NCBI GenBank assembly: GCA_964016885.1
Contig: OZ024741.1
Location: 144,150,001 to 144,214,000, forward strand
Source of the DNA: Eledone cirrhosa
Taxonomy: Eukaryota
Length of the DNA: 64,000 nt
Direction of reading: 5' to 3'
This document shows, in pieces, positions 8,338 through 58,509 of this stretch. The notes beneath the pieces are model-generated. The model was not told the origin of the DNA, made no database searches, and saw nothing but the letters and a program-made list of their open reading frames with translations. The position numbers were made by a program, and so were the translations under genes. The first letter of the stretch is position 1, and each line of letters begins with the position of its first letter.

Positions 8338-11300
8338 CTACAGGCTTATGTAAAGAGAAGACCCATTCACACGGGCCATTCTCGCCACTTTCACCCACCT
8401 TTCATAAAAACGACTGGGGTGCAGCACCTCTCTCTCCATCCTGATCCTTCTTCCGAAATGATATCGGAAGAAACGGACCAGTTGTTGGCCAGAGAGAAAG
8501 GCGCCCGACCTCAGTCCTTTCAGACGCGTCCACCATACAACCTCTTTCGCCATGGCTATTACGCACAGAAACACCGCCTCTGCTTCATCTTTGAAGGGGG
8601 GAGGCGGCTTGATCATTACAATAGACTCGGTGGTCAACCGGATCGGTCCCACCCTTGACAGCAGTTGTTCGACATAGCCCCACAGATCGGCTACGCCCGA
8701 GCAGTGTACCAATGCGTGTGCAACGGTTTCCTCGTCGCACACACATCTGGGACAGATCTTTTTGGCGGGGTCCCTACCCGGGCGCCCGTGTCTGTAGAGC
8801 CTTTCTCGAACGGGTAAAGCCCCTCGGTAGCACTGCCAGGCCAGGGACTTCTGGAAGTTGTCCATAGGTCCCGGGCTGAATGTCCTACCGAACAGGCTGG
8901 CCAGTTCGTCCTCCTCCATGTCTAGGGCTTCTCCGAGGGCGTCGTCGCACCTGCTGCGTACCAGCCCTCTATAGAATGTTGCGGTGGAGTCTCCACTGAT
9001 AACCGGATCCGCCTGCCAGAGGGCGGTGAGCGCCTGGGCACACTCAGTGTGCCAGGCGCCCAGTTTTCTCGGTCTCTGCTTGACCCAGGATTGCAGTTCG
9101 GTGAGTGAGATGAGTCTGGGAAAGGTTCGTCTCACAAACGGGGCCCACACCGGTTGTCCGGTGAGGAATACGTAGAGGTGCCGTAGCCTTAATGCGTGTT
9201 TACGCATCATTAGCCACGGCATCCCCAGCCCTCCTTTCGAAGGGTGTTGACAGCAGATGGATCTCCTCACCATAGGAGCCCGACCCTTCCAAAGGAATTG
9301 GAAGAGCGCGCGCTCCATCTTGGTGAGGGTTTCCCTTGGGCAGGGCACTACGGTCAGGCGGTAGTAGATGACGGACGCTATATAAGTGTTCGCCACCTCC
9401 GCCCGACCTTTCAGGGATAGTTTGCAACTGGCCCACTTCTGGGTCAGTGCAAACACCCTGTTCGTAACCTCCGCCCAGTTTTTCTCCACCTGGAGGTCCG
9501 GTCCGAACCAGACCCCGAGCAACTTCACCGGGCCCTCCGTCCAGCGTCCGACGACGCAATCGGAGGGCATCGGTCTGCCCCTCCACGTGCCGAGTTGCAA
9601 ACCGATCGACTTGTCCCGGTTCAGCTTAGCCCCTGTGAACTTTTCGTACTCCTCCAGTAAGGTGCCGACCGCCTCGATTTCGGAGGCCGTCGACACCATT
9701 ACTGTCACATCATCGGCGTAGGCTGACACCGCTTTCCGCAATCCCGGTTCCAAAGGGATGCCCTGCAACAACTCCAACTTCCGCAGTAGTGGCTCGAGAG
9801 TCAACACATACAGAAGGGAGGAGAGAGGGCACCCTTGTCGGATGGACCGCGCGATTTTGAACGGCTCCGAGAGGTAGCCGTTCACCTTGACCCTAGAGCA
9901 GATGCGGCTGCTGTGCATAGCAGTGATCCAGCCCCTGAAAACGGGTCCGAAGCCTGCCGCCGCTAGCACCGCATCCAGGTAACCATGGTCGACCCTATCG
10001 AACGCCTTAGATTGATCCAAGTTGATCAGAGCCCCACCAAAGCCGGGTTCGTTCCCAACCCTCTCTATGATGTATCGCATGAGGTGGAGGTTGTCATGGA
10101 TGGACCTGGACGGGATAGCGCATGTCTGCGCATCTCCCACCAGGTTGCCCACGACAAGCGCCAACCTCTTTGCTAGCACCTTGGCCAAAATCTGTAACTC
10201 TGTATTTAGCAGAGTTATGGGCCTGAAGTTACTTATTTCGTCCCCCTTGTTCTCGTCCTTCCTCACTAGCGTGACTACGCCCTTGGTCACAGTACAGGGA
10301 ATTCTCCCGTTCTGTTGCCAGTTGCAGTAGACCGCCTCGAGGAGATCGGGGAACAAGTCCGGCATAGCTAGATATAATTCGTAAGGAAGACCATCGAGAC
10401 CCGGGGATTTGCGTTTGCCGCATTGGCCCAGCACGTCCTCTATCTCAGCGGCCGAAATCGGCTCCTCGCAAGACTTCGCCTCCCTGTCCGAGAGGCGCGG
10501 CAGGCCGTCGAGGTATGGACCGAAGTCCACGTTTCCAACCGGCTCCCCGCCCCTTCCGAACAGTCGGGCAAAGTGCCTTTGAAAGGCCTCACACATCTGC
10601 TTAGGCTCAAGAATCGCCCGTCCATCCAGGTCTCGCAAAGACCGGATGGTGGATTTAGTTCCACTGTTGGCCTCTGTCACGCGGGCCCAGCTAACAGCTT
10701 TGGCCCCCTCGTTCCCTAGAGCACGTATTTTACTTCGGACAACGCAGCCTTCGTGCTTCGCGTCGAAAAACTGGCTCAAAGCCGTTCTCGACGCTAGCAC
10801 TCTGGCCACGTCGCCGCTTCTAATTGCCTCTTCTACTCTATCTATTAGCTCCCTTTCCTTCCTATTCCTATCCGCAGCTAGAACCTTACTAAATTCAATC
10901 GAGACTACTCTAATCTCTCTCTTTAGAGATACCCACCACCTGCTGTTGACGATCGCTCCAGTCAACCGTTCCTTAACTAACGTACTAATCCGATTCCTGT
11001 AGGTTCTACTTGCCGGCAAGGACAAGTTGAGCTTCCAGTAACCGGGGCCCTGTCTATGCGTTCTATCAAGGTTGACCATGCAGGTCACCAACTTGTGGTC
11101 TGAATAGCCAACCATGAGCATTTCTGGACAACTTAAAAAGTCCCTGTCCTTATTTCTAACTAAAAATCTATCTAGGTACGATCTAGATGATCCGCTGCGA
11201 TTTGACCAAGACCAGGTTGGCACCGTCGGAAAATCTAGTCGAAATCTATCGGCCAGGTCAAATCGGCCGAGTAACCCCTTGAGGCTGTTGCACCCCTCTC

Positions 11301-11775
11301 TATCGGGACATGCCCCTGCATAGTCCCAACGTGCATCCAGGATACCATTCCAATCCCCCACTAAAAGCAGGGAACGGGACGTCCCTAGAAAAGACTCCAG
11401 ACGCTGGAAAAAGTCGGGCCGCTCTGTCCCAAAAGGGGCATATGCGGCTATCAGCCTAAAGGCTCTACCTTCACCACTGCCAAGGTCCAGCACCACCAGT
11501 CGACCCCCTGGGTCCAAGTGAACTATCTGTGTTGCAAGGCCCATATGTTTTTGCAGCAGAACGACAACCCCACCCCCACCTCCGGGCTGACAGAGAGATG
11601 CGTGCATCTCAAAGTCGTCAAAGGTGGGGGCTAGCTGTCGCATGCTGCTGATCCGGGCCTCGCAGATAACCATCACATTTATAGATTGTGACCTGAGGTC
11701 ATTTAGAAGCATTGCTTGCTTCCAAGACGAGCCCAGGCCACGCGCATTTAGACACCCTACTCTTAGCACAGCCAT
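8338..11775 (-). CDS. ORF2p: APE endonuclease + reverse transcriptase + C-terminal zinc-binding domain (1145 aa from ATG 11775)
   Basis: GCLNARG, CE, AYAP, GDWN, SYLDRF, SDH (APE); KSPGLDG, NFRPITLLN, DQSKAFDRV, RQGCPLS, YADD (RT); CPRC..ETVAHALVHC. No stops. Confidence 0.96.
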   Translation of the reverse strand: MAVLRVGCLNARGLGSSWKQAMLLNDLRSQSINVMVICEARISSMRQLAPTFDDFEMHASLCQPGGGGGVVVLLQKHMGLATQIVHLDPGGRLVVLDLGSGEGRAFRLIAAYAPFGTERPDFFQRLESFLGTSRSLLLVGDWNGILDARWDYAGACPDREGCNSLKGLLGRFDLADRFRLDFPTVPTWSWSNRSGSSRSYLDRFLVRNKDRDFLSCPEMLMVGYSDHKLVTCMVNLDRTHRQGPGYWKLNLSLPASRTYRNRISTLVKERLTGAIVNSRWWVSLKREIRVVSIEFSKVLAADRNRKERELIDRVEEAIRSGDVARVLASRTALSQFFDAKHEGCVVRSKIRALGNEGAKAVSWARVTEANSGTKSTIRSLRDLDGRAILEPKQMCEAFQRHFARLFGRGGEPVGNVDFGPYLDGLPRLSDREAKSCEEPISAAEIEDVLGQCGKRKSPGLDGLPYELYLAMPDLFPDLLEAVYCNWQQNGRIPCTVTKGVVTLVRKDENKGDEISNFRPITLLNTELQILAKVLAKRLALVVGNLVGDAQTCAIPSRSIHDNLHLMRYIIERVGNEPGFGGALINLDQSKAFDRVDHGYLDAVLAAAGFGPVFRGWITAMHSSRICSRVKVNGYLSEPFKIARSIRQGCPLSSLLYVLTLEPLLRKLELLQGIPLEPGLRKAVSAYADDVTVMVSTASEIEAVGTLLEEYEKFTGAKLNRDKSIGLQLGTWRGRPMPSDCVVGRWTEGPVKLLGVWFGPDLQVEKNWAEVTNRVFALTQKWASCKLSLKGRAEVANTYIASVIYYRLTVVPCPRETLTKMERALFQFLWKGRAPMVRRSICCQHPSKGGLGMPWLMMRKHALRLRHLYVFLTGQPVWAPFVRRTFPRLISLTELQSWVKQRPRKLGAWHTECAQALTALWQADPVISGDSTATFYRGLVRSRCDDALGEALDMEEDELASLFGRTFSPGPMDNFQKSLAWQCYRGALPVRERLYRHGRPGRDPAKKICPRCVCDEETVAHALVHCSGVADLWGYVEQLLSRVGPIRLTTESIVMIKPPPPFKDEAEAVFLCVIAMAKEVVWWTRLKGLRSGAFLSGQQLVRFFRYHFGRRIRMEREVLHPSRFYERWVKVARMARVNGSSLYISL

Positions 11776-11799
11776 GTTGGTGGTAAAGAGAAAAGGCAC

Positions 11800-22780: not shown

Positions 22781-23045
22781 GGGCGCAGCATAGCCAAATA
22801 GTTAAGAAGTTTCCTTTGCAATCATTAGATCCTGGTTGTGATTCCACTGCGTAGCATCCCGCGAAAGTGTCATTTGCCATAGTCTTGGATCGACTAAAGC
22901 TTTGTAAATAAAATTGGGAAAACGGAAACTGTTAAGAAACCCGTCGGATAGACTGTCTGTAATTGAAAGAATTCATGAGCAGGTTATTCTGGTTATCGAA
23001 CAACTAGAACACTCATCACCCAAACCGATTGAGGTTCATTCTATG

Positions 23046-23073
<28 letters not shown>
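22781..23073 (+). mobile_element. SINE family S1 (internally deleted) with (TATG)n tail
   Basis: Homology to 3540-3890 and 39090-39448. Confidence 0.65.
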
Positions 23074-23074
<1 letters not shown>

Positions 23075-23077
<3 letters not shown>

Positions 23078-25377
23078 ATCACGTGTTAGGCGGAGTCTTT
23101 CTCAGATGAAAGATCAGTGGTGGAGTGAGAAGGCTGGTGAGATACAAACTGCGTCTGATTCCAATAACACAAAGCTGTTGTACTGTCTCTTGCGTGAGGT
23201 TTATGGACCGTCTTCTTCTCTGGTGACACCGCTTCGCAGCAAGGATGGCAAAGAACTTCTTCGTGACTCACAAGGAATTCTACGAAGGTGGCGAGAGCAC
23301 TTTGATGATCTTTTGAATCAGCCGTCTGTCGTCAGTGAAAATTTCCTCAATCTCATTCCAGAAAGTCCTGTGAAAATAGCTCTCGCAGAACCTCCGACGC
23401 TTGTGGAAGTTGCAGTGGCTATTTCGAAGCTGAACAGTGGAAAATCTCCAGGTATGGATGGCATACATGCTGAGCTCCTACAATATGGTGGTGAGAGACT
23501 CCTGCAACATCTTCACTCTTTGTTTGGCAGGATATGGGCTAATGAATCCGTACCTGAGGACTGGAGAGATTCAGTAATGATGGTCTTGTACAAGGGAAAG
23601 GGTAACAGGAACGATTGTGGGAACTACAGAGGTATATCATTGCTTTCTGTCGTAGGGAAAGTTTTATGTAGGGTGCTTCTGGACCGTCTGCTGACACACA
23701 TTGCAGATTATGTTCTTCCTGAAAGTCAATCTGGTTTTCGTGCTGGACGCGGCACTACTGATATGATCTTCTCAGCTAGACAGCTCCAGGAGAAGTGCAT
23801 GGAACAAGGCTTGGATCTGTATCATGTTTTTGTCGATCTGACAAAAGCTTTCGATACTGTTAACAGAGATGCATTATGGAAGGTTCTCCAGAAACTTGGT
23901 TGCCCTGATAAGTTCCTTGCTTTAGTTAGGTCTTTCCATGACGACATGAAGGCTTGGGTTAATGTCGGGGGTAGCATGTCGGAGCCTATCTCGGTAAAAA
24001 ATGGAGTGAAACAGGGGGATATTCCAGCACCGACCCTGTTTGCCATATACTTTGCAATGGTTTTCTGTATTGCATTCAGGAATTGCGAGCATGGTGTTTA
24101 CATCCGATATCGAACCTCAGGCAGCATATTTAACATCAGGCGCTTTGCTGCGAAGACAAAAGTATTTACATCAATCATAAGAGACCTCTTGTATGCAGAT
24201 GATTGCGATCTTGTAGTGCACACAGAGAGTGATATGCAGCACATTTTGAATGCATTTTCTGACGCTTGCACTGCCCTAGGATTGACTGTCAGTCTCAAGA
24301 AAACCGTCGTCATGTACCAACCTGCCACTGGTAAGCAGTACACTGAACCAAACATCTATGTGTATGGCAAACGACTTGGAGTGGCTGATCAGTTTGGATA
24401 CCTGGGAAGCACTGTCAATCGATACAGCAACCTTGACAGTGAAATCTCACTTAGGATTAGGAAAGCAAGTGATGCTTTCGGAAAGCTAGAAAGGCAACTC
24501 TGGGGTCGGCGAGACATATGCAGGAGGACAAAGGTAAAGGTGTACAGGGCATGTGTGCTCTCTTGTCTTCTTTATGCCTACGAGACCTGGGTCACATATC
24601 GACACCACCTTAAGCAATTGGAGCGTTTCCATCAGATGTGTCTCAGACGGATTCATGGCGTTCACTGGAGGGACCACATCAGTGATGTCGAGATTTTGGA
24701 AAGCTCTATGTGTGACAGTATAGAAGCTCTTGTGCTTAAGCAACGACTCCGTTGGAGTGGTCACCTTGCCAGGATGAAGGATTCTAGAATATCAAAACAG
24801 CTCTTTTATGGAGAGTTGGTTAAAGGAAAACGACCGCCACATAAACCAAAAAAGAGGTATAAGGATTCCTTGAAAGCATCTCTGAAAGACGCTAACATCT
24901 CTGCTGATACATGGGAGAATTGCTGCTGATCGTAATAAATGGAGAAAGACTGTATATGAGGGTAAAGTTGCCTTTGAGGCATCTCGAATAGCATACGAGA
25001 AAGTAAAGCGGGATGTGAGGAAGGGCATTGCTGTTGCACTTCCAGACGGCGTGGGTCCTCCTATGGTGCTGACATGCAGCGTATGTGCGAGACTCTGCCT
25101 AAGCAAAGCTGGACTCGAAAGTCATCTTCGCAGTCATAAAGTAAGACCAGTGGTTGACTACCAGGCTGCTGTTGGAGATGCTACTCATCATGCTTGCCAA
25201 ACATGTGGTAGAGAATGTAAATCAGCAGGAGGGCTCAAGCGACATGCAAAAGTACACGAACTCCAACCACAGCCGACTATTCCCAGTAAATGTTTTGGTT
25301 GCCGACTCTGTGCAAGACATTTTAGATCATTGGCTGGGCTAAAAAGCCACATTCGATCGCAGCGCTGTTAGTTGCTA

Positions 25378-48612: not shown

Positions 48613-51600
48613 CATGGGAGAAGAAATGTATATATTGGAGAGCTGGGGGAAGAGGTGTATATATTGTAGAGCTGGGGGAAGAGGTGTATATATTGTAGAG
48701 CTGGGGGAAGAGGTGTATATATTGGAGAGCTGGGGGAAGGGATGTATATATTGGAGAGCTGGGGGGAAGAGGTGTATATATTGGAGAGCTGGGGGAAGGG
48801 ATGTATATATTGTAGAGCTGGGGGAAGGGATGTATATATTGTAGAGATGGGAAAAGAGGTGTATATATTGGAGAGCTGGGGGAAGAGGTGTATATATTGT
48901 AGAGCTGGGGGAAGGGATGTATATATTGGAGAGCTGGGGGAAGAGGTGTATATATTGTAGAGCTGGGGGAAGGGATGTATATATTGGAGAGCTGGGGGAA
49001 GAGGTGTATATATTGTAGAGCTGGGGGAAGAGGTGTATATATTGGAGAGCTGGGGGAAGGATGTATATATTGTAGAGCTGGGGGAAGAGGTGTATATATT
49101 GTAGAGCTGGGAGAAGAGGTGTATATATTGTAGAGCTGGGAGAAGGATGTATATATTGTAGAGATGGGAAAAGAGGTGTATATATTGTAGAGCTGGGAGA
49201 AGGGATGTATATATTGTAGAGCTGGGAGAAGGATGTATATATTGTAGAGCTGGGGGAAGAGGTGTATATATTGTAGAGCTGGGGGAATAGGTGTATATAT
49301 TGTAGAGCTGGGAGAAGGATGTATATATTGTAGAGCTGGGGGAAGGGATGTATATATTGTAGAGCTGGGGGAAGAGGTGTATATATTGGAGAGCTGGGGG
49401 AAGAGGTGTATATATTGTAGAGCTGGGAGAAGAGGTGTATATATTGGAGAGCTGGGAGAAGAGGTGTATATATTGTAGAGCTGGGAGAAGAGGTGTATAT
49501 ATTGGAGAGCTGGGAGAAGAGGTGTATATATTGTAGAGCTGGGAGAAGAGGTGTATATATTGGAGAGCTGGGAGAAGAGGTGTATATATTGCAGAGCTAG
49601 GGGAAGGGATGTATATATTGTAGAGCTGGGAGAAGAGGTGTATATATTGGAGAGCTGGGAGAAGAGGTGTATATATTGTAGAGCTGGGGGAAGGGATGTA
49701 TATATTGTAGAGCTGGGAGAAGAGGTGTATATATTGGAGAGCTGGGAGAAGAGGTGTATATATTGTAGAGCTGGGAGAAGAGGTGTATATATTGGAGAGC
49801 TGGGGGAAGGGATGTATATATTGTAGAGGTGGGAGAAGAGGTGTATATATTGGAGAGCTGGGAGAAGGATGTATATATTGTAGAGCTGGGGGAAGAGGTG
49901 TATATATTGTAGAGCTGGGAGAAGAGATGTATATATTGTAGAGCTGAGAGAAGGGATGTATATATTGTAGAGATGGGAGAAGAGGTGTATATATTGCAAA
50001 GCTGGGAGAAGAGATGTATATATTGTAGAGATGGGAGAAGAGATGTATATATTGTAGAGCTGAGAGAAGGGATGTATATATTGTAGAGATGGGAGAAGAG
50101 GTGTATATATTGTAGAGATGGGAGAAGGGTGTGTATATATTGTAGAGATGGGAGAAGAGGTGTATATATTGTAGAGCTGGGAGAAGAGGTGTATATATTG
50201 TAGAGCTGGGAGAAGGATGTATATATTGTAGAGCTGAGGGAAGAGGTGTATATATTGTAGAGCTGGGAGAAGAGGTGTATATATTGGAGAGCTGGGGGAA
50301 GGGACGTATATATTGTAGAGCTGGGAGAAGAGGTGTATATATTGTAGAGCTGGGAGAAGAGGTGTATATATTGGAGAGCTGGGGGAAGGGATGTATATAT
50401 TGTAGAGCTGGGAGAAGAGGTGTATATATTGGAGAGCTGGGGGAAGGGATGTATATATTGTAGAGCTGGGAGAAGAGGTGTATATATTGGAGAGCTGGGG
50501 GAAGGGATGTATATATTGTAGAGCTGGGAGAAGAGGTGTATATATTGTAGAGCTGGGAGAAGAGGTGTATATATTGTAGAGCTGGGAGAAGAGGTGTATA
50601 TATTGGAGAGCTGGGAGAAGAGGTGTATATATTGTAGAGCTGGGAGAAGAGGTGTATATATTGTAGAGATGGGAGAAGAGGTGTATATATTGTAGAGCTG
50701 GGGGAAGGGATGTATATATTGTAGAGCTGGGGGAAGAGGTGTATATATTGTAGAGCTGGGGGAAGAGGTGTATATATTGTAGAGCTGGGAGAAGAGGTGT
50801 ATATATTGGAGAGCTGGGAGAAGAGGTGTATATATTGTAGAGCTGGGAGAAGAGGTGTATATATTGGAGAGCTGGGAGAAGAGGTGTATATATTGTAGAG
50901 CTGGGGGAAGGGATGTATATATTGTAGAGCTGGGAGAAGAGGTGTATATATTGTAGAGCTGGGGGAAGGGATGTATATATTGTAGAGCTGGGAGAAGGAT
51001 ATATATATTGGAGAGCTGGGAGAAGAGGTGTATATATTGTAGAGCTGGGAGAAGAGGTGTATGTATTGGAGAGCTGGGAGAAGAGGTGTATATATTGTAG
51101 AGCTGGGAGAAGAGGTGTATATATTGGAGAGCTGGGGGAAGGGATGTATATATTGTAGAGCTGGGAGAAGAGGTGTATATATTGGAGAGCTGGGGGAAGG
51201 GACGTATATATTGTAGAGCTGGGAGAAGAGGTGTATATATTGTAGAGCTGGGAGAAGAGGTGTATATATTGGAGAGCTGGGGGAAGGGATGTATATATTG
51301 TAGAGCTGGGAGAAGAGGTGTATATATTGGAGAGCTGGGAGAAGGGATGTATATATTGTAGAGCTGGGAGAAGAGGTGTATATATTGGAGAGCTGGGGGA
51401 AGGGATGTATATATTGTAGAGCTGGGAGAAGAGGTGTATATATTGTAGAGCTGGGAGAAGAGGTGTATATATTGGAGAGCTGGGAGAAGAGGTGTATATA
51501 TTGTAGAGCTGGGAGAAGAGGTGTATATATTGGAGAGCTGGGGGAAGGGATGTATATATTGTAGAGCTGGGAGAAGAGGTGTATATATTGGAGAGCTGGG

Positions 51601-53279
51601 GGAAGGGATGTATATATTGTAGAGCTGGGAGAAGGATGTATATATTGTAGAGCTGGGAGAAGGATGTATATATTGTAGAGCTGGGGGAAGAGGTGTATAT
51701 ATTGTAGAGCTGGGAGAAGAGATGTATATATTGTAGAGCTGAGAGAAGGGATGTATATATTGTAGAGATGGGAGAAGAGGTGTATATATTGTAGAGCTGG
51801 GAGAAGAGATGTATATATTGTAGAGCTGGGAGAAGAGATGTATATATTGTAGAGCTGAGAGAAGGGATGTATATATTGTAGAGATGGGAGAAGAGGTGTA
51901 TATATTGTAGAGATAGGAGAAGGGTGTGTATATATTGTAGAGATGGGAGAAGAGGTGTATATATTGTAGAGCTGGAAGAAGGATGTATATATTGTAGAGC
52001 TGAGGGAAGAGGTGTATATATTGTAGAGCTGGGAGAAGAGGTGTATATATTGGAGAGCTGGGGGAAGGGACGTATATATTGTAGAGCTGGGAGAAGAGGT
52101 GTATATATTGTAGAGCTGGGAGAAGAGGTGTATATATTGGAGAGCTGGGGGAAGAGATGTATATATTGTAGAGCTGGGAGAAGAGGTGTATATATTGGAG
52201 AGCTGGGGGAAGGGATGTATATATTGTAGAGCTGGGAGAAGAGGTGTATATATTGGAGAGCTGGGGGAAGGGATGTATATATTGTAGAGCTGGGAGAAGA
52301 GGTGTATATATTGTAGAGCTGGGAGAAGAGGTGTATATATTGTAGAGCTGGGGAGAAGAGGTGTATATATTGGAGAGCTGGGAGAAGAGGTGTATATATT
52401 GTAGAGCTGGGAGAAGAGGTGTATATATTGGAGAGCTGGGAGAAGAGGTGTATATATTGTAGAGCTGGGGGAAGGGATGTATATATTGTAGAGCTGGGAG
52501 AAGAGGTGTATATATTGTAGAGCTGGGGGAAGGGATGTATATATTGTAGAGCTGGGAGAAGGATATATATATTGGAGAGCTGGGAGAAGAGGTGTATATA
52601 TTGTAGAGCTGGGAGAAGAGGTGTATGTATTGGAGAGCTGGGAGAAGAGGTGTATATATTGTAGAGCTGGGAGAAGAGGTGTATATATTGGAGAGCTGGG
52701 GGAAGGGATGTATATATTGTAGAGCTGGGAGAAGAGGTGTATATATTGGAGAGCTGGGGGAAGGGACGTATATATTGTAGAGCTGGGAGAAGAGGTGTAT
52801 ATATTGTAGAGCTGGGAGAAGAGGTGTATATATTGGAGAGCTGGGGGAAGGGATGTATATATTGTAGAGCTGGGAGAAGAGGTGTATATATTGGAGAGCT
52901 GGGAGAAGGGATGTATATATTGTAGAGCTGGGAGAAGAGGTGTATATATTGGAGAGCTGGGGGAAGGGATGTATATATTGTAGAGCTGGGAGAAGAGGTG
53001 TATATATTGTAGAGCTGGGAGAAGAGGTGTATATATTGTAGAGCTGGGAGAAGAGGTGTATATATTGTAGAGCTGGGAGAAGAGGTGTATATATTGTAGA
53101 GCTGGGAGAAGAGGTGTATATATTGGAGAGCTGGGAGAAGAGGTGTATATATTGTAGAGCTGGGAGAAGAGGTGTATATATTGGAGAGCTGGGGGAAGGG
53201 ATGTATATATTGTAGAGCTGGGAGAAGAGGTTATATATATTGGAGAGCTGCTAGAAGAGGGTGTATATATTACAAAGCT
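48613..53279. repeat. 29-bp tandem satellite (~160 units), consensus GAGCTGGGAGAAGAGGTGTATATATTGTA
   Basis: Direct inspection; variant units recur at a 1564-bp offset. Confidence 0.97.
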
Positions 53280-55523: not shown

Positions 55524-55625
55524 CGTGTTTGTGTGCATGTATAACTATGTATGTTTGTGTGCATCTATAACTATGTATATATATACATATATATAAGATC
55601 AAAAGATGGTTAAAAGAGTTCCATG

Positions 55626-55696
55626 TATTTTATTATGCGCATTTCAAAAACAAATATCATCATGCACTAACATTTGCGTTTTCGTCAGATAAAATA
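55626..55696 (-). ncRNA. Type I hammerhead ribozyme (H3, CTGACGA core)
   Basis: tattttat-CTGACGA-aaac..tttt-GAAA-tgcgca-TA-ataaaata. Confidence 0.82.
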
Positions 55697-55754
55697 TGTT
55701 GATTTAAAACTGCACTATTCACAAGTGTTTTTTAACCTTCATATCATGTCTCCC

Positions 55755-55825
55755 TATTTTATCTGATGAAAACGCAAATGTTATTGCATGATGATATTTG
55801 TTTTTGAAATGCGCATAATAAAATA
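55755..55825 (+). ncRNA. Type I hammerhead ribozyme (H3, CTGATGA core)
   Basis: 8-bp stem I, long stem II, palindromic stem III atgcgcat, UA cleavage site at 55816-55817. Confidence 0.85.
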
Positions 55826-55949
55826 CATGAAACTCTTTTAACCATCTTTTGATCTCATATATTATTTATACTCCAGTCCTATAAACTGTAGAGTGCTACT
55901 TATCCGATATCTGCATTGCTTTATTGTACTACAATAAAACTCACCTCCT

Positions 55950-56024
<75 letters not shown>

Positions 56025-56229
56025 CATGAACCAATAACACACACATGTGTGCGCGTGTGCATATGTATATTAGTGTGTATCCATTCCAAAGCATAGCAGA
56101 CGGTCTTGTTCACAAATTAGCAACATTTAACATCACTGTAGAATTAATTGCAATGTCTACAGAACAGAACAGGATAACGAATTGAGAAGACATCGATTTC
56201 ATTTTTAGTAGCGTCCATTAGGAACCCTG

Positions 56230-56696
56230 TTCCTGTTGTTGTTGGTGTTTTAAGGTTATAGTGGTGGTGGTGATGGTTTTGTTGTTGTTATTGGTGGTGT
56301 TTTAATGGTTATGGTGGTGGTGGTGGTGGTGGTGGTGGTTATGGTGGTGGTGGTAATGGTTCTGTTGTTGTTATTGGTGGTGTTTTAATGGTTATGGTGG
56401 TGGTGGTAGTGGTGATGGATCTGTTGTTGTTGTTGATGGTGTTCTAATGGTTATGGTGGTGGTGGTGGTGGTGGTGGTGGTTATGGTGGTGGTGGTTATG
56501 GTGGTGGTGGTAATGGTTCTGTTGTTGTTATTGGTGGTGTTTTAATGGTTATGGTGGTGGTGGTGGTGGTGGTTATGGTGGTGGTGGTAATGGTTCTGTT
56601 GTTGTTATTGGTGGTGTTTTAATGGTTATTATTGTGGTGGTGGTGGTTCTGTTATTGTTGTTGTTGGTGTTTTAATTGTGGTGGTGGTGGTGGTGG
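56230..56696. repeat. (GGT)/(GTT) minisatellite with a higher-order ~55-70-bp unit
   Basis: Recurrent ggttctgttgttgttattggtggtgttttaatggttat. Confidence 0.9.
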
Positions 56697-57379
56697 TGAA
56701 CAAACGAGCAACGGTGGTTGCTAGACACTACGGCTTAATACGGGTTGTTTGTTTACAAACACACCGAGCATTATAATAAATGTTTGGTGAATCCATACGT
56801 ACATATATATGTGTGTGCATGTATGTATATATATATACATACTACTGTACGTCTGTATACATATATGTATGTACGTATACATACTTATATTTAAGTAACA
56901 GCCGTACTAAGAGTGGGAAATGAAATTTCGTTTCATTTTTTCCGTTTATCGTTTTCGGTGCTCCCGGCCGATTAACCCACTCGATATGCAAATTGGGCTA
57001 CTCAGCCGTTAATATGCATAAGGTAAGTATATACTTTCGGACGTTCAACTATCTGGCAGGAAGGTATGCGTTGCTGACGATAGCTAACAAGCTTGAAACT
57101 AGTACAGCGTTCCTTTGTCAGTGTTGAACAAACGAGCAACGATGGTTGCTAGACACTACGGCTTAATACGGAATGTTTATTTACAAACACACCGAGCATT
57201 ATAATAAATGTTTGGTGAATCCATACGTACATATATATATGTGTGTGCATGTATGTATATATATATACATACTACTGTACGTCTGTATACATATATGTAT
57301 GTACGTATACATACTTATATTTAAGTAACAGCCGTACTAAGAGTGGGAAATGAAATTTCGTTTCATTTTTTCCGTTTAT
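56697..57379 (+). mobile_element. Hammerhead-bearing repeat family H4: 1.6 tandem units of 428 nt
   Basis: Near-identical ~253-bp direct repeats 56697-56949 and 57125-57379, with a hammerhead just upstream of the second. Confidence 0.85.
57068..57110 (+). ncRNA. Minimal type I hammerhead ribozyme (H4)
   Basis: cgttg-CTGACGA-t-agct-aaca-agct-t-GAAA-ctag-TA-cagcg. Confidence 0.82.
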
Positions 57380-57683
57380 ATATATATATATATAAATACA
57401 ATATCGGAGAAAGCTTTTTAGCGATACTCCGGCCAAATTCCAACTCACTCAACAAACATTAGGAAATAAGTGATTATATTCCCAATTATGTGTTCGGGGT
57501 GCTAACTAAAAGTATTGCGTGGAAAATTGGCTGTATTATTTCAAATGAGATATATCTAATATATCTCTTCCCGTTATATATATATATATATATATATATA
57601 TAACGAAGGAGGTGTGGTAAGGAACCAGATGGACCATAACGCACCAGATTACTCAATACTTAGGGTAGTAGAGTGGGCAATAG

Positions 57684-57782
57684 GAAAAAGTTTGACCCCG
57701 ACGGCAGAGCTCAAGCCGTTACGACGGCTATTTCTGAAATAGCCGTCGAAACGGCTTGAGCTCTGCCGTCAGGGTCAAACTT

Positions 57783-57786
<4 letters not shown>
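57684..57786. repeat. ~103-bp near-perfect palindrome (family P)
   Basis: gaaaaagtttgaccccgacggcagagctcaagccg...cggcttgagctctgccgtcagggtcaaactttttc. Confidence 0.92.
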
Positions 57787-57828
<42 letters not shown>

Positions 57829-58509
57829 CGGCGATGAATTTGTTTTGCGAGGTTTTTGATATGAAGTCGTGTGTCGAAACAAATATTGTTATACTTGGGG
57901 AGAGTCATATTGTTGTAATAATATTCCCAGAAACAATAACAGAACACACTCACTGTTTGGTTGGTTTTTGCTTCTGTATCTTTTATATCTCCACAGCTAA
58001 TTCATTTGCTCCTCAATGTTTATCATTGACTGACCAACGGTAAAAAATACAGATATAAACGTATATATATAATCTAACAAAGTTCTTTCGTTGCATATCT
58101 GCAACATCATCAGTGGTACTATTATGTTCCTCCTGTTGTATTGTATGTCTACGCCATTTTATTTTATCTGTTTATTTATTTATTTATTTATTTTTCTCTT
58201 CTCTGCCCATGCGTTTGTGTGTGTGTATAGTGTTTGGTGTGTGTGTTCGCGTTTGGGTGACTGTGTTTTTGTTATTGTATTCTATCTTAGTTTACTAGTG
58301 TGTTTGTTGTTATTGTGTTTGTGTATATATTTATTTATTCATTTATTTATATTTCTCTTAAGTCAGTATTGTTTGTTGGGGTGTTGTTATTCCATTCATT
58401 TTTTCTGTTTAGCTTTGGCCTTCTAAGCTCTATTTCGCTTGCCTCTTTGATTTGCCTACGGCTGAGTCATTTCTATGTTTAGATATTATTTTAATTTCTA
58501 TGTTGTCTA

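Follow-up and report, generated by a model that had tools for sequence, protein, structure and literature searches.

We consider it probable that the DNA at 56697-57379 of the window (the whole 64,000-nt stretch of Eledone cirrhosa contig OZ024741.1 that we analysed) is a single-armed, 5'-truncated copy of a non-coding 428-nt retrozyme, likely written into a (TA)n tract by a trans-acting Penelope (PLE) RT/GIY-YIG enzyme and probably from a circular RNA monomer. The parts of this reading differ in strength: we are highly confident that the family, here called H4, is a non-autonomous element mobilised by PLEs and, granted this, find a mainly circular template likely. The window copy itself is ordinary; its family bears on the question of PLE-mobilised retrozymes. 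Mobilisation of animal retrozymes by PLEs via RNA circles has been proposed, in the accounts given in PMC7229834 and Li 2026 (10.64898/2026.07.22.740005), without insertion-level evidence. H4 insertions carry the two-site footprint of PLEs, and in no resolved pair do both arms of an insertion end at the same site.

The copy in the window and its hammerhead

The first-pass annotation of this DNA had noted two near-identical direct repeats of about 253 bp with a period of 428, and these are present: they measure 253 and 255 bp, are 97.6% identical and differ by 4 substitutions and one 2-nt indel (Table 1). The copy amounts to 1.6 units with a single ribozyme and has one arm only, which ends at the long end site, L; the short end site, S, is not used as an end here. 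Its 5' junction lies approximately 16-20 nt downstream of the cut-site position in the preceding unit. The left flank (56060-56250) is single-copy and is separated from the insertion by a minisatellite, while the right flank consists of further repeated elements, nested together and set apart by (AT)n runs. The two flanks differ, and (TA)n targets hide duplications. Folded stretches containing the AU-rich hairpin gave z scores of -7.2 and -8.2. The copy is real and ordinary and probably a dead end; with only 1.6 units and one ribozyme, it would not release a monomer alone.

Table 1. Features of the H4 copy (window coordinates)
Feature	Positions	Strand	Details
5' junction	56693..56698	+	GTG/TG microhomology to (TGG)-rich minisatellite (56254-56696)
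Repeat 1	56697..56949	+	unit positions 1-253; 5'-truncated arm begins
AU-rich hairpin	56795..56878	+	long, predicted; unit 99-182; second instance ~57223-57308
Remainder of 428-nt unit	56950..57124	+	unit positions 254-428; one occurrence in copy
Type I hammerhead	57054..57120	+	core at 57068-57110, stem I extended; cut predicted at 57104/57105
Repeat 2	57125..57379	+	unit positions 1-253; 3' end of insertion
Small hairpin	57312..57327	+	predicted; loop contains short end site S (unit 194 = 57320)
59-nt tail	57321..57379	+	between end sites S (194) and L (253)
(AT)n target remnant	57378..57394	.	followed by another repeated element (57395-57574)

The surroundings are rich in other repeats. Elements at 57395-57574, 57603-57786 and 57830-58140, each between (AT)n runs, matched 6, 46 and 35 of 300 fetched loci, respectively, and the locus is a nest of (TA)n-targeting insertions. 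Near further (AT)n runs, at 55590-55860, a different hammerhead family is present as a short head-to-head pair (motifs: plus strand, 55763-55817; minus strand, 55688-55634; similar sequence in 12 of 300 fetched loci). A 29-bp satellite of approximately 161 copies with strong G skew (48615-53271) produces spurious minus-strand open frames of more than 1,500 codons. LINE-type ORFs are found at 8338-11799 on the minus strand (a 1,153-aa endonuclease, RT and zf-RVT frame) and at 22908-24929 on the plus strand (a 673-aa RT frame), together with several related fragments in both orientations; the long window ORFs that match Pfam (16 of 32 ORFs scanned) are of this type and unrelated to the 428-nt unit. 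Repeat 2 carries G>A changes at 57142, 57172 and 57179, and the same trio is present at a locus 750 kb off on the same contig (L012), which may reflect a local source-daughter link or conversion.

The compact hammerhead claimed 15 nt ahead of the second repeat lies at that distance, counted from the end of the motif. A descriptor scan found 3 hammerheads in the 64-kb window and none in each of 30 shuffles, the other two being the inverted pair of the different family, detected with the same descriptor. In an Rfam scan, the hammerhead had no match, either at the gathering score or at E<=5, and sub-threshold miRNA models on the AU-rich hairpin were taken as compositional. Helix I pairs GCGUUG (57068-57073) with CAGCGU (57105-57110) and encloses CUGACGA (57074-57080), followed in order by U, helix II (AGCU-AACA-AGCU), U, GAAA, helix III (AC-UA-GU) and GUA, after which (57104, plus strand) the cut is predicted. 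Helix I has 6 bp and extends through an internal loop 1 (UAU/U), helix II has 4 bp, and helix III has 2 bp with a palindromic loop; loop 2 is AACA or AAUA and fits the RNnA motif as given in PMC2632901. The window copy differs from the commonest ribozyme variant by one change, A-U to G.U at the end of helix I.

By the definitions in Cervera 2014 (PMC4209133), this sequence falls in the canonical metazoan type I class. The label "minimal" in the first-pass annotation does not fit: the PLE min-HHR described in that paper is without helix III and has a helix II of 7-8 bp, a helix I of 4-5 bp and a poorly defined loop 1, whereas the H4 hammerhead has all three helices, with the lengths given above. 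The intact CUGACGA/GAAA/GUA core with helices I-III is what is expected of a non-LTR retrozyme; the atypical feature is a U.U at 10.1-11.1, the family norm, in place of the usual G-C pair, termed highly conserved in Cervera 2014. Because of this replacement, the predicted ribozyme activity may be weak. The ACUAGU of helix III can form a 6-bp inter-ribozyme helix (predicted -4.8 kcal/mol), so that cleavage likely depends on a dimer. Given a helix III of 2 bp with a palindromic loop and this probable need for a partner, cutting at 57104 may well fail to appear in an assay of a single copy. According to Li 2026, 8 of 9 Xenopus retrozyme dimers were uncleaved in vitro. That study calls elements with two consecutive complete hammerheads active, which the window copy with its one ribozyme is not; many other H4 loci hold two or more. 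Among 13 variants hand-picked for diversity, 95% of cells are paired, with 7 double-change cells, a result reached in 0 of 500 shuffles by a statistic that ignores relatedness. Helix I is kept by compensatory changes between subfamilies, and the core is nearly invariant.

A dispersed family with two fixed, strictly paired end sites

The exact ribozyme 29-mer occurs 2,050 times in the 3.0-Gb genome (0 for the reversed control), which disposes of the concern that the unit might be single-copy and its duplication a product of slippage. A 201-nt query spanning the hammerhead returned 1,526 candidates, and the 40 scored matched at 96-100%. H4 is a dispersed multi-copy element with thousands of copies genome-wide. 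Its units of 422-428 nt stand in tandem, and the search for longer tandems that had been proposed as a check turned up arrays of up to approximately 40 units. The GC content is 38%, and the longest ATG ORFs of the tandem stretch are 48 and 53 aa. The earlier reading as a non-LTR retrozyme is supported by this multi-copy, tandem, ORF-free organisation and by the Penelope-type ends described below.

After five old, complex or incompletely fetched loci had been dropped, the copies fell into a 428-nt subfamily (38 loci, 2.0% from the majority) and a 422-nt subfamily with an 8-nt deletion (16 loci, 0.7% from the majority). The window copy belongs to the older 428-nt form, and its repeats differ at 4 of 147 non-hairpin sites, which is typical for the 428-nt burst. 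Its description as young and recent holds only in a relative sense: it is of middling age within the family, and the 422-nt subfamily is younger. An older, longer sister subfamily uses homologous end sites in all 6 of the loci displayed, out of 30. Contigs from sequencing runs contain the unit and sister variants in organism A, with a few low-depth contigs in organisms B and C; none of these entered the age estimates. An old array of approximately 40 units with approximately 8% divergence between units (L063-L064, G000:C1:53.354-53.371 Mb) is possibly a source locus or a nascent satellite. Scars of A-to-I editing were considered and rejected: outside the hairpin A>G changes number 81 against 77 T>C, and the excess inside it (75 versus 38) largely reflects position 105, where a subfamily allele lies, and position 115, a slippage boundary.

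The 3' ends of the copies are fixed at unit position 253 (L) or 194 (S), where they run into (TA)n. Among 92 arms from 55 loci, 45 end at approximately 253, 34 at approximately 194 and 13 elsewhere; AT repeats follow directly after 69 of the 92, and the 5' ends are scattered. Genome-wide, exact junctions with (TA)n number 3,946 for L and 4,193 for S, sister subfamilies included. Where two arms stand head to head, the sites are used in a strict combination. In the 55-locus set, 20 of 31 such junctions (one locus counted twice) are L+S, none is L+L or S+S, and the remaining 11 have one end unassigned to L or S. Within the first 74.8 Mb of C1, a stretch in which some loci overlap the 55-locus set, all 21 divergent end pairs within 2 kb are L+S. 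Widening the limit to 6 kb gives 24 of 24 (p=4e-8), with two of the three additional pairs probably separate insertions, so that 21/21 is the cleaner count. For an end-anchored set, we took ends that had no partner, the first 40 out of 54 at L and the first 40 out of 66 at S; of these 80 additional loci, 75 could be mapped and 39 had an inverted arm. All 29 resolved pairs are again L+S, with 10 further pairs unassigned.

Two adjacent 3' end sites, 5' truncation, partial tandems, an inverted 5' arm and a (TA)n target are all Penelope-type features. Since two fixed sites used in strict pairs match the Penelope "tail", we attribute the H4 ends to a Penelope-type enzyme. Simple twin priming on one linear RNA predicts L-arm 5' ends near 194 and was rejected, as the observed ends are scattered. 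The 5' end of the window copy had raised the idea of a pile-up of 5' ends at the ribozyme cut; this was also discarded, with 5 of 92 ends at 409-428 (p=0.43). Any model of priming at the two DNA ends by a PLE dimer has to account for the L+S rule.

Template and source of the enzyme

Of the end-anchored arms, 44 of 75 run through the ribozyme cut site, which excludes a cut linear monomer as the main template. In 31-nt intervals at cut sites, 3 stops were observed against 4.8 expected, i.e., no excess, and 2 of 46 arms at risk stop at the first cut site (95% CI 0.5-15%, background included), counts for which arm mapping is approximate where indels break chains. Since arms pass the cut without excess stops, the template is either a ligated circle or an uncut multimer. 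The conserved ribozyme, together with the lack of stops at the cut, favours the circle. So do uniform two-armed arrays that share private alleles in all their units: L062 has near-identical units in both arms and a locus-private allele in 8 of 8 covering pieces, and L009 has one in 4 of 4. It speaks against the circle that such alleles are present in all units at only 2 of 34 testable loci; they are shared across arms at 5 of 34. The circle is also favoured by the 422-nt form, which is closer within loci (0.73%) than between them (1.26%), and by the stability of the predicted circular fold (-130 and -143 kcal/mol versus approximately -98 +/- 5 for shuffles). The 428-nt form is star-like, and its similar divergence within and between loci (3.9% versus 4.0%) is uninformative on the template. 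Taking these data together, we infer that a ligated circular template fits best.

Weighing against a circular template, L061 and L174 hold non-identical units. The latter (G000:C1:49.58 Mb) is a ten-unit array in strict 420/422 A/B alternation whose middle units are without private changes, which suggests a higher-order repeat emerging from a retrozyme array. A dimer circle was considered as its origin and rejected: end units have private changes and middle units do not, which points to later expansion at the DNA level, and from its sequence the A/B dimer looks to have expanded after insertion.

The same element and Penelope machinery could also work on linear RNA that is read through from an array already in place and left uncleaved, with a hammerhead that acts rarely, late or at a different step. 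The absence of cut-site stops fits this equally, homogeneous arrays exist as possible sources, the U.U pair may weaken cleavage, and uncleaved RNA is the dominant substrate in vitro in the experiments of PMC11167929. We nevertheless regard a linear template as unlikely, given the compensatory changes that keep helix I across subfamilies and the near-invariant core. Moreover, partly cleaved multimers would pile up 5' ends at the cut, where only 2 of 46 arms stop, and the retrozyme RNAs of coral, mussel and axolotl are reported to accumulate as circles (PMC7229834).

With a circular template, mobilisation would begin with transcription of arrays that have at least two ribozymes. Two hammerheads would pair through the palindromic helix III and excise a 428-nt monomer, which a host ligase would circularise. 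A PLE protein dimer would then bind the RNA circle near the 59-nt tail and cleave both strands of a (TA)n tract, and cDNA would be primed from each DNA end, by one subunit at L and by the other at S. Copying would continue beyond one unit length, and the cDNA ends would be joined to each other or to the flank through microhomology. At the window locus, only the L-primed arm would remain, and some long arrays would have been enlarged afterwards at the DNA level. A bolder version, which we offer as a tentative idea that may well prove wrong, is that the PLE dimer loads both RT subunits on one ribozyme-made circle, at two fixed sites separated by 59 nt, and that copying proceeds around the circle from each end of the (TA)n double-strand cut. 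If true, L+S pairing and the absent cut-site stops would be traces, left in the genome, of a viroid-sized host RNA that retrotransposes by a rolling-circle mode and uses a borrowed enzyme but not that enzyme's pLTR sequence.

The first-pass annotation had offered partial-tandem Penelope pLTRs as an alternative to a retrozyme, and the repeats might accordingly be pLTR remnants of an autonomous Penelope with unsampled ORF-bearing copies. In favour of this, a tail, arms in inverted orientation and insertion into (TA)n are traits of PLEs (PMC8557442), Li 2026 reports homology to known elements, nearly all PLEs, for 24 of 57 retrozyme families of Xenopus, and one arm from an H4 sister subfamily is joined in the sense orientation to part of a PLE ORF. 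Against this, what sits upstream of a unit is another unit, up to approximately 40 times. Remnants of PLE ORFs turned up in 4 of the 86 loci with H4 and in none of the 30 with the sister subfamily, and no junction recurred among them. Comparison of the unit with the pLTRs of 45 GIY-YIG loci (150 of 10,596 candidates scored in that search) revealed no homology, only separately inserted unit copies. No RT + GIY-YIG ORF flanked by the unit was found among the loci sampled, and none of the autonomous families in the 45 GIY-YIG loci and 30 loci of one further family had homology in its pLTR or a tail of 59 nt. We therefore consider pLTR remnants very improbable and classify H4 as a non-autonomous non-LTR retrozyme, because no copy runs in register into a Penelope ORF, with the exception of one chimeric junction. 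Another possibility is that unequal exchange at the DNA level spread a satellite or local duplication in which the hammerhead is a passive relic. This would suit the A/B repeat of L174 with its middle units free of private changes and the local amplification that Li 2026 proposes for tandems, but it is scarcely credible: unequal exchange accounts for the growth of some arrays, not for their origin, and it does not produce 3' ends precise to the base, random 5' ends and a strict L+S combination at thousands of scattered sites.

Turning to possible partners of the retrozyme, young autonomous RT + GIY-YIG families of matching youth co-reside in the genome. Both domains are carried by 9 of 12 PLE ORFs tested, and pairwise DNA divergence is 0.7-1.5% in family C and 0.8-2.1% in family D. 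By our own count, the two end sites of the autonomous families lie approximately 42, 44, 49 and 64 nt apart. At 1 of 61 single-arm flanks, the H4 arm directly abutted an autonomous PLE. At L086 (780-2355; G000:C1:80.905 Mb), a 5'-truncated family-C arm and a 422-nt-subfamily arm meet head-to-head without intervening (AT)n, which may be a mixed two-RNA insertion or a nested insertion with deletion. At L179 (1050-1560), the sister-subfamily arm mentioned above is joined to the endonuclease part of a family-D PLE via short microhomology, possibly by a template switch; nested insertion could explain either lead. The family-D hammerhead shares the U.U feature with H4. The pLTRs of families B and C (L105, L107, L111, L127, L128, L133, L138 and L140) carry hammerheads with a U3-A8 core in place of C3-G8 and a palindromic helix III, a U3-A8 variant having been described for Schistosoma (PMC4209133), and family-B hammerheads have GCAA where GAAA is expected. 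Family C, with its U3-A8 hammerhead and its one head-to-head junction with an H4 arm, is a candidate enzyme donor. Since the substrate is 422-428 nt long, the start sites are known and young candidate enzymes reside in the same genome, the system lends itself to a direct test in vitro.

Comparison with known retrozymes and Penelope elements

Among the papers listed on cephalopod retrozymes and on octopus hammerheads and Penelope elements, judged by title and abstract, there was no description of the H4 family or of strict L+S pairing in a retrozyme. The metazoan non-LTR retrozymes of PMC7229834 (coral, mussel, axolotl and a newt satellite) resemble H4, as far as they are described there, in their canonical type I hammerhead, short tandem units, GC content below 45%, lack of an ORF, highly paired predicted circle and PLEs in the same genome; the amphibian ones also share a short palindromic helix III. 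At 422-428 nt, the H4 unit is at the long end of the retrozyme range (short tandem units of approximately 150-450 bp). H4 differs in its U.U at 10.1-11.1 and in the PLE tail signature with paired L and S arms, which is absent from their description. Expression and cleavage were demonstrated for those retrozymes, whereas the cleavage of H4 is predicted. The vertebrate non-LTR retrozymes of Li, Clavereau and Pollet 2026 are alike in non-autonomy, in forming monomers, dimers and multimers and in co-occurring with EN+ PLEs. Their link to PLEs, as presented in that report, is co-occurrence and pLTR homology, while that of H4 is the insertion footprint, with no pLTR homology found.

The closest parallels to the insertions themselves are in EN+ PLEs, e.g., Poseidon PAc of Anolis (Frangieh 2024, PMC11167929; Craig 2021, PMC8557442; PMC4209133), which like H4 have two internal RT start sites and an AT-rich target. 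As reported in PMC11167929, a PLE protein in purified form cleaves and extends the two strands of AT-rich DNA and starts reverse transcription at a pair of neighbouring internal sites, by which the genomic tail is defined; it is predicted to be a dimer, and hammerhead cleavage was dispensable in vitro. According to PMC8557442, PLEs form partial tandems, carry inverted 5' arms, favour (TA)n targets and often have a tail at just one end; the inverted arm is 5'-truncated and the hammerhead upstream of the start sites, and H4 is alike in all these points. Unlike EN+ PLEs, H4 has no ORF, its hammerhead is canonical and not a min-HHR, and its tail is 59 nt long compared to the 30-40 nt cited for them. 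Finally, the PAc data describe, in bulk, the same start-site use on top and bottom strands, whereas the two arms of one H4 insertion never share a site among the resolved pairs.
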